Assembly (NCBI GenBank): GCA_044892505.1
Contig: CM097882.1
Location: 590,860,001-590,924,000 of the forward strand
DNA length: 64,000 nt
DNA from: Schmidtea nova
Taxonomy: Eukaryota
Reading direction: 5' to 3'
Shown here: in pieces, positions 15,261-16,637 of the stretch
Position numbering within the stretch: the first letter of the stretch is position 1
Layout of the letters: each line of letters opens with the position of its first letter
Made by a program: the position numbers and the translations under genes
Notes under the pieces: model-generated
Told to the model about the DNA's origin: nothing
Database searches by the model: none
The model's input: the letters and a program-made list of their open reading frames with translations, nothing else

Positions 15261-16637
15261 TTACGCCAACCATCCTTTTCTATCCGTTTTCTCATGCCTC
15301 TCCATCTCTATGTATAGCGTGTCTGCATATAGTCGCTCCCATAGGTTTTCTTTCCTTATAAACATTGGTTCTCCTGCTGCTAGTCCGCATTCTGTTGTTG
15401 GTTTTTCGCTTGTACTCGTATGTTTGTCTGTTTCAAAGAACTTTTCTACTGGTTTTCCTATACTTTTGATTCTTATAATGACTCCTACTTTCAAGGGCCA
15501 TTCTATTAGGTCATCGTATTCTCCTTTACATAACGAGAAGAATATTGATACGTGTGTTCCTTGTCCTCTTCCGTCTCCATTTGGGTAGACCTTCAATCTT
15601 ATTTTAACCCCATTTTTCCATAAATAAAATGGTGGGCTTATTACTGCTGTTTTCGTCATATTTCTGGCTTCTGCTAGTTTGTCTCTGAAATCTGTTACTT
15701 TCCATAGGTAAGGTGCGATTGGTAAGTCCCTTCTTTCGTCAATTTCTCGTATTAATTGATTATATTGTATTTTCATTCCTTTTCCTAATTCTTCTATGGC
15801 TATTATTTTCTTTTCCATTCTTTCGCGAGTTAGTTCAAACTGCTCTCTTGTTTCTAGTAGTAAACTCATCATTATCTTATGTGATTCTACTTCTTTTTCT
15901 AATTTCTGGATTGTCTGTTCCGTTTCTTTTGTCGTCTCGTTTGTCATCTCCACATGCATTAATGCTGCTTCTTCCAAGTGTTGTTTCATTGTTTTTCGCG
16001 TCCGCTTTTCCTTGCATCCATGCTTGTTATATGGACATTCTCTTGGCCTTTCGGTGCATATTTTCCAATGTTCATGTAACTTTATTTCTTCTGTTATTTC
16101 GCAATTGTTTGGACATTTGCTTACATATTGTCCGCATACTTTCTCCTCTGTTATATTCAAGTGTTCTTCTTCGATTTTTCTCCTCGTTTCTCGAGTTTCA
16201 CAATATTCGCATACGATTTCTTCTTCTTTACATTCGTTCTTGTGTTGTTCTCTCTTCTTTAGAATTATTGTCTGTTGGCACTTCTCGCATTCGGCTCTTT
16301 TCTCCTCGCACTTTTCCATATGATTTTCTAGATTACTTATTTGTCCTTGCCATGTACAAGGTGTATTTACGCACTCCGTTATGGTGCTCATAATTTCTCT
16401 CTGGGTTGCTTTATCCGTTCTGGTTTCGTCCAACATTATTCTTCCTTCTTTACATTCTGGGCATGTTGTTATTCCTGTTGCATCTAATTCTTGTATACAT
16501 TTTGTACATATTCTACATCCACATGTCGTTTGTCTGGGTTCTCGTAATAAATTGTTACACTTCCCGCATGTGAGCCTCTTGCTCCATTTTCTGTTTTCTA
16601 GTCTCAAAATTTCGATTATTCGTTCTTCTCTGTCCAT
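15261..16637 (-). CDS. TRAF-like protein (RING, TRAF Zn fingers, coiled coil, MATH), 458 aa
   Basis: CGKCNNLLREPRQTTCGCRICTKC; CPYNKHGC; YLWKVTDF; SPPFY; LKVYPNGDGRGQGTHVSIFF; DDLIEWP. Confidence 0.95.
   Translation of the reverse strand: MDREERIIEILRLENRKWSKRLTCGKCNNLLREPRQTTCGCRICTKCIQELDATGITTCPECKEGRIMLDETRTDKATQREIMSTITECVNTPCTWQGQISNLENHMEKCEEKRAECEKCQQTIILKKREQHKNECKEEEIVCEYCETRETRRKIEEEHLNITEEKVCGQYVSKCPNNCEITEEIKLHEHWKICTERPRECPYNKHGCKEKRTRKTMKQHLEEAALMHVEMTNETTKETEQTIQKLEKEVESHKIMMSLLLETREQFELTRERMEKKIIAIEELGKGMKIQYNQLIREIDERRDLPIAPYLWKVTDFRDKLAEARNMTKTAVISPPFYLWKNGVKIRLKVYPNGDGRGQGTHVSIFFSLCKGEYDDLIEWPLKVGVIIRIKSIGKPVEKFFETDKHTSTSEKPTTECGLAAGEPMFIRKENLWERLYADTLYIEMERHEKTDRKGWLA

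Follow-up and report, generated by a model that had tools for sequence, protein, structure and literature searches.

A full-length TRAF gene carried by a giant Burro-type Gypsy retroelement of Schmidtea nova

Giant Gypsy retroelements of planarians, known as Burro or GYPSM1, carry MATH_TRAF_C domains as published cargo, even in a separate accessory ORF, and a review has proposed that Burro meddles with host apoptosis and ubiquitination (PMC6431247). According to the same source, these elements reach ~30 kb, encode a polyprotein of ~5000 aa with a mononegavirus-like fusion glycoprotein between Gag and protease, and contain ankyrins and accessory ORFs; the MATH domain is placed inside ORF1 in Schmidtea mediterranea and in an upstream accessory ORF in Dugesia tigrina. 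Intestinal transcription of BURRO1 and its silencing by PIWI have been described (PMC8532177). Among the chief targets of piRNAs are traf and ankyrin transcripts (PMC6824462), and an expansion of MATH domains has also been documented (PMC6109357).

The stretch of DNA analyzed here (the window, 64,000 nucleotides) contains an element of this type, with a single-exon TRAF gene of RING–zinc finger–coiled coil–MATH order behind its pol (Table 1). The element is of the Burro/GYPSM1 type, as assigned by architecture: it has the Gypsy pol order PR-RT-RH-IN in a ~5000-aa polyprotein, LTRs of ~3.04 kb and an internal region of ~23 kb, in agreement with the length (~30 kb) and long LTRs of Burro. A fusion glycoprotein of the Monjiviricetes type (PF24664, E 1.7e-70) lies in frame between Gag and protease, and ankyrins are found 3' of the integrase (Ank_2, E 1.2e-12). 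The gag, fusion glycoprotein, protease, RT, RNase H, integrase and ankyrin segments are all upstream of the TRAF on the same strand, and the TRAF is the second of three downstream accessory ORFs of 118, 458 and 353 aa. Bcl-2-like and BIR motifs gave no Pfam matches in the frames scanned, where only an IAP-type RING was detected upstream. The LTRs were defined on three dispersed copies; they begin and end with TG...CA, and the LTR pairs within each of the three copies are 99.6-100% identical and therefore point to recent mobility. Two of the three copies have a 4-bp ATTT target duplication.

Table 1. Features of the TRAF-bearing element in the window (positions counted from the first letter of the window).
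Feature	Position	Strand	Basis or remark
TRAF accessory gene, family A	15261..16637	minus (16637-15261)	458 aa, single ORF from ATG, 0 stops
RING finger, aa 24-62, eight Cys ligands (C4C4 type, CGCRIC)	16452..16568	minus	PDB matches and residue alignment
TRAF zinc fingers, four C-C-H-C at aa 89-194 and a probable fifth	15969..16373	minus	Pfam, alignment
Coiled coil (TRAF-N), aa 225-303	15729..15965	minus	AlphaFold model
MATH / TRAF-C domain, aa 310-445	15303..15710	minus	Pfam, PDB, Foldseek
Splice-acceptor-like site: T-rich tract, TAG, 3 nt before TRAF ATG	16638..16660	minus	Inferred 3' splice site
118-aa accessory ORF between pol and TRAF	16730..17086	minus	Own acceptor-like site; homologue in family B
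353-aa coiled-coil accessory ORF	14086..15147	minus	Acceptor-like site; pN/pS 0.08; homologue in family B
4999-codon polyprotein frame: fusion glycoprotein, protease, RT, RNase H, integrase, ankyrin repeats, FN3-like membrane segments	17212..32211	minus	
Gag with zinc knuckles	32121..33695	minus	
Upstream accessory ORF with C3HC4_3 (IAP-type) RING	35535..35924	minus	RING scored on the neighbouring unit's copy, 2386-2922
5' LTR, about 3.04 kb, TG...CA	36384..39421	minus	Approximate ends, from dispersed copies
3' LTR of the TRAF-bearing element	3228..6266	minus	Common to the next tandem unit
Identical TRAF gene, next tandem unit	48918..50294	minus	0 differences in 1377 nt

The window covers two units of a 33-kb tandem array, which has four internal regions when the flanks are included. 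Its units are 99.9% alike, with 500 N at 45142-45641 inside the array. The window copies are damaged: a break between the gag and polyprotein frames near 32.1-32.2 kb is absent from a dispersed copy, and a 7.5-kb segment with a BEL/Pao element stands in place of about 0.5 kb adjoining the 3' LTR. The array may be real or partly an assembly artefact, and the TRAF finding is unaffected either way. Across G000:C1:590830084-590973689, the array comprises four internal regions and five LTR-plus-insert blocks that are 99.7-99.97% alike; the TRAF of one unit has a stop, and 0.8 kb of the insert recurs as an inverted copy 1.2 kb to the left. The BEL/Pao LTR element (7092-13447 and 40248-47104) has 354-bp LTRs and frame breaks, and near its 5' end it holds ubiquitin-coding frames in two stretches (7503-8590, ubiquitin E 1.4e-41), possibly a captured polyubiquitin fragment.

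Several other parts of the Burro-type element have features of their own. The leader that separates gag from the upstream RING ORF contains tandem repeats of 32 bp and 29 bp (1557-1942 and 34706-35091). The end of the polyprotein (17215-20874) consists of two units with signal peptide, FN3-like and transmembrane segments; support for FN3 is weak, with FN3 membrane proteins scoring 0.83 or less in the atlas search. The tails of these units start with QWP(N/D)I, reminiscent of the cytokine-receptor Box1 motif. The 353-aa protein belongs to no known family, the atlas search giving only weak leads among generic coiled coils. Its tail (14086-14130) is kept in families A and B and finishes in ETLV or ETDV, which we take to resemble a class I PDZ-binding motif.

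An initial annotation of the window, made from the letters alone, had described the ORF as a full-length, intronless TRAF with complete RING-ZnF-coiled coil-MATH architecture, carried by a retroelement. Both the architecture and the carriage are borne out, the former by Pfam, PDB, AlphaFold and Foldseek and the latter by the many copies and by the position of the ORF inside an LTR element. Pfam detects MATH_2 at aa 310-445 (E 1.4e-20), TRAF-mep_MATH (5e-19), zf-TRAF (2.4e-6) and, weakly, the RING (zf-C3HC4_4, 0.0045). Sequence matches in the PDB are TRAF1-6 for the MATH domain and TRAF6/5/2 for the RING and zinc fingers. The AlphaFold model (mean pLDDT 85.7) contains the fingers, a helix at 225-303 with pLDDT >90 over most of its length, and a beta sandwich at 310-449; its low pTM of 0.39 is expected for an extended multi-domain chain. 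The top Foldseek matches of the model are TRAF3/1/2/5. The protein thus has the features of the TRAF family, namely a C-terminal MATH/TRAF-C domain, a coiled coil before it, and a RING followed by TRAF fingers; it lacks those of canonical TRAF2/3/5 (C3HC4 RING, hot spots 1-3) and falls outside the canonical clade.

The gene is not a single syntenic host locus but is present in hundreds of copies in element families. The 92 best-scoring TRAF matches in the genome were all full length at 95-100% identity, seven with an in-frame stop. Exact searches placed the motif CGCRICTKC at 191 sites and CGCRMCTKC at 143, with none for the reversed-pattern control, and these two counts correspond roughly to the sister element families A and B. 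Element context was confirmed for 27 family A loci and nine family B loci.

Selection, which the initial annotation had proposed to measure as dN/dS, was assessed by uncorrected pairwise pN/pS, in which pairs are not independent. Two sets of family A copies were compiled. One, of 27 of 30 loci picked by protein with three tandem siblings dropped, is biased against amino-acid change; we therefore relied on the other, in which 27 of 30 copies were picked by a non-coding spacer. Mean pairwise pN in the spacer-picked set was 0.020 and pS 0.168, a ratio of 0.12, with domain values of 0.18 for the RING, 0.14 for the fingers, 0.11 for the coiled coil and 0.08 for MATH. Nineteen of these 27 copies are intact at full length, four have a stop, two a frameshift and two a partial match, and Cys41 of the RING is kept in all 26 copies covering the site. 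Constraint is weaker at the C-terminal end of pol (0.35, protein-picked set), and the family B TRAF gave 0.126 for nine copies picked by MATH score. At the level of sequence comparison, these ratios show the TRAF to be kept under purifying selection, in every domain, across element copies.

The replacement of the RING His by Cys, pointed out in the initial annotation, is present but is not a mark of the element. The same eight-Cys RING occurs in all seven aligned single-exon host TRAFs, as well as in Dendrocoelum TRAF-2 and TRAF-4, and the change was rejected as an inactivating, element-specific one because it is the host state. C4C4 RINGs make up 22 of 121 database RINGs, some of them in canonical-type proteins, and are not alone diagnostic of the triclad clade. 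The second position after the first RING Cys, an E2 contact in TRAF6, is occupied by Lys in families A and B (27/27 copies of the protein-picked family A set) and by an Ile/Leu-type hydrophobic residue in the seven host rows; four other triclad-type TRAFs, including Dendrocoelum TRAF-2, also have Lys there. Given this residue, the ligase activity of the element RING may be weak. In the MATH domain, alignment indicates that the Lys/Tyr of the polar pocket and two pocket Phe of the peptide groove are kept, under a published TRAF2 peptide-pocket definition (PMC6125299) whose residue numbers we mapped onto the alignment. Family A has Ser at the TRAF2 F456 position, where hosts mostly have Phe or Tyr; therefore its peptide specificity may differ from theirs. 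The S467 and C469 equivalents are changed in the element TRAF; a remodelled serine triad and a missing C469 equivalent are features that it shares with triclad TRAFs.

The proposal that the capture is old and assimilated agrees with the composition, the divergence between families and the trees. The element TRAF (A 0.45, third-position A 0.55, AT skew 0.45) resembles gag and pol (pol 0.44, 0.50 and 0.40), so that the A-rich codon usage noted at the outset does match the element, whereas host TRAF frames have A of 0.32-0.40 and skew of -0.03 to 0.18. In family B, the corresponding position is taken by a TRAF frame of 476 codons with 52% identity to that of family A, and synonymous sites between the two families are saturated (pS 0.75 for TRAF, 0.92 for RT). 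Family C has only a MATH domain, inside a 4706-codon polyprotein, with no RING or fingers before it. If derived from one capture, the three families would represent three fates in one genome, two full-length downstream genes and one MATH-only polyprotein domain. The fusion glycoprotein (26900-27920 against locus L091) is 98% identical between families A and B with pS 0.28, while RT, integrase and TRAF are saturated, which suggests a recent envelope swap between the families by recombination.

Single-exon TRAFs without Burro neighbours are also found in the host genome (loci L095 and L097-L102). The intronless state, a clue in the initial annotation, is consequently no mark of the element, and intron loss was rejected as proof of retro-capture. 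L095 is single-copy, with its nearest paralogues at 39% and 36%; the host gene nearest to the element TRAF is about 31% identical to it, and the nearest named TRAFs are those of the triclad Dendrocoelum lacteum. The third TRAF finger of the element protein has an 8-residue His-to-Cys spacing in common with host triclad TRAFs, and an insertion giving a spacing of 8-10 residues occurs in 3/3 element, 6/7 host and 0/5 outgroup rows.

The phylogeny with host paralogues suggested in the initial annotation places element TRAFs among the triclad eight-Cys TRAFs. In the full-length tree, element-type TRAFs form one clade (99/98) beside these TRAFs, a clade that takes in A, B and three unnamed element-like database proteins (P0013, P0026, P0036). 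Triclad host and element TRAFs together split from canonical TRAFs at 99/96, and at 96/94 in a smaller mixture-model tree. The C4C4 RING, the finger-3 insertion and the tree position jointly assign the element TRAF to the triclad eight-Cys-RING clade. A MATH-only tree, without rows L097, L068 and P0009, which were missed by the domain-cutting pattern, joins families A, B and C with host L095 at 95/91. With support of 94/54 for A+B+C, the tree is compatible with a single capture but does not establish it. L095 may be the donor candidate by the MATH tree, where element rows are composition-biased, and the fork is open in the full-length tree; P0031 and P0054, weak sisters of the element clade in an earlier tree (82/92), are unsettled at that fork in the redone full-length tree. 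A large host TRAF-like cluster at G000:C2:405-455 Mb (L057-L076), partly tandem and with a separate MATH exon, forms a clade apart from the element TRAFs. Altogether, a single-exon host TRAF is the likely source of the ancient capture that gave rise to the element TRAF; since host TRAFs share the eight-Cys RING and the single exon, both would be inherited from the donor.

The downstream genes share a putative expression signal. All three downstream ORFs are preceded by a T-rich tract and by a YAG within 4 nt of the ATG, the spacing being 1-3 nt, and the acceptor-like sites are kept in every anchored family A locus (33, 46 and 28 of 49 for the three ORFs) and before 9/9 family B TRAFs. None of 146 in-frame ATGs of pol has the same combination, although 18 have YAG alone. 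These sites are most simply read as a sign that the downstream genes are made from spliced subgenomic RNAs comparable to those of complex retroviruses; the alternative is trans-splicing of a spliced leader, a process that occurs in flatworms. Four contig-form runs of unspecified kind over the region gave no consistent joint at the acceptor sites and are uninformative either way.

With slightly better than even confidence, we propose that this long-captured TRAF is made from a spliced subgenomic RNA and works as a functional mimic, in a pro-survival or immune-damping capacity. Splicing from the 5' leader would yield a subgenomic RNA encoding the TRAF, which would form trimers through its coiled coil and MATH domain and bind the tails of host receptors or adaptors as well as host TRAFs. 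Cells expressing the element would be kept alive or their innate response damped, with the TRAF potentially acting together with the RING, ankyrin and published Bcl-2-like and BIR cargo of the element. Knock-down of planarian TRAF-like genes in Schmidtea increases cell death and is lethal (PMC7586133). In planarians, TBK1 induces TRAF2/3/5 homologues and restricts the expression of foreign genes; the same study did not find a clear NF-kB homologue in a planarian (PMC13563047), which makes NF-kB, the output named in the initial annotation, doubtful. Genome searches for Rel-homology and TNFR domains returned no match, but their control matched nowhere either and they are silent on absence. The direction of the effect is less certain because the one characterised viral TRAF, ISKNV ORF111L, induces apoptosis (PMC3352826). 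Four-residue TRAF-binding motifs in element proteins were rejected by eye as chance occurrences in Glu-rich sequence.

The initial annotation had left open whether the protein is a mimic or a dominant negative. In the latter case it would act as a decoy, binding host receptor tails or TRAFs via the coiled coil and MATH domain, recruiting no E2 and blocking signalling. This is consistent with the Lys at the presumed E2-contact position in all 27 family A copies and in family B, with MATH being the most constrained domain (pN/pS 0.08), and with family C, which keeps MATH alone and implies that this domain is by itself worth carrying. However, the main clue to a dominant negative is lost with the His-to-Cys change being the host state, the Lys is also present in host-type triclad TRAFs, and the RING (0.18) and fingers (0.14) are under purifying selection and kept in two long-separated families. 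Moreover, TRAFs that bind E2 poorly still aid ubiquitin transfer in RING heterodimers (PMC5702613). Since the RING is selected in two old families with the host ligand pattern, a working adaptor fits better than a RING-dead dominant negative, and we regard the decoy as unlikely, though worth serious consideration.

Selection on the TRAF might instead reflect a role inside the element, whose membrane proteins, coiled-coil proteins or particles it would serve as an adaptor or ligase. In both families the TRAF belongs, with the 118-aa and 353-aa ORFs, to a fixed block of three genes, and the polyprotein end offers FN3-like single-pass membrane segments with cytoplasmic tails; nevertheless, family C carries MATH only, so replication is possible without a full TRAF, and such a role is rather improbable. 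It is very improbable that selection acts through the worm, with many TRAF copies adding pro-survival signalling: there are hundreds of copies, most sampled ones are intact, and host TRAFs are essential for cell survival (PMC7586133), yet the constraint shows up among mobile copies whose LTRs are nearly identical, a pattern that selection on the replicating element would produce, individual copies decay (6/27 with stops or frameshifts), and a fixed LTR-less copy was not seen. The ease of passive capture from single-exon host TRAFs would favour a neutral passenger, or a host gene mis-assigned to the element. That reading is scarcely credible and was rejected as refuted by copy number, selection and A-B divergence: pN/pS is 0.12 on copies picked regardless of protein, the TRAF is retained across saturated synonymous divergence, and the nearest host gene is only about 31% identical.

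The published remark that Burro contains apoptosis and ubiquitin domains becomes a testable case, that of a whole signalling adaptor under selection in a mobile element, with a predicted mode of expression. In planarians, counts of TRAF genes, expression calls and the design of RNAi experiments may fail to separate host genes from the hundreds of copies borne by elements. More broadly, and only tentatively, Burro elements could be complex endogenous viruses that express a captured full-length TRAF from a spliced subgenomic RNA as a modulator of innate signalling or cell death. With hundreds of element TRAFs, the reported 'TRAF expansion' of planarians, and likewise the traf and ankyrin transcripts targeted by piRNAs, would then consist in part of retroelement cargo, and the protein would offer a natural probe for the TRAF-TBK1 pathway in animals without a clear NF-kB.

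Within the literature searched, the acceptor sites, the full-length downstream form, its selection and its host clade were not found and appear new here; nor was any full-length TRAF on a retroelement described there, the Burro primary paper (Grohme 2018) and the figures and supplements of the review being outside the scope of the search. The full-length element TRAF may already be in print. A Burro-borne apoptosis inhibitor has reportedly been the subject of later work.

In comparison with known systems, family C matches the published Burro1 layout, with MATH inside the polyprotein (PMC6431247). Families A and B depart from it: the block of three genes with acceptor-like sites that follows pol includes one for an entire RING-finger-coiled coil-MATH protein; the text of that review names only the MATH domain. 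The closest relatives are the triclad host TRAFs (L095, L097-L102; Dendrocoelum lacteum TRAF-2 and TRAF-4), which have the same domain order, C4C4 RING, finger-3 insertion and serine triad/C469 changes, the host loci also sharing the single exon. The element TRAF differs from them in its 25-31% identity, A-rich codons, K/E/R/T-rich protein and hundreds of mobile copies, and in family A only by the Ser at the F456 equivalent. Vertebrate TRAF2/3/5 are the best MATH matches by sequence and fold and share the polar-pocket Lys/Tyr and two Phe, whereas the element protein has Cys for His in the RING and changed F456, S467 and C469 equivalents, and lies outside their canonical clade. Finally, ISKNV ORF111L of a megalocytivirus is likewise a host-captured, virus-carried TRAF with RING, coiled coil and MATH, but it belongs to a fish DNA virus, is 296 aa long, binds TRADD and induces apoptosis, and represents an independent capture (PMC3352826).
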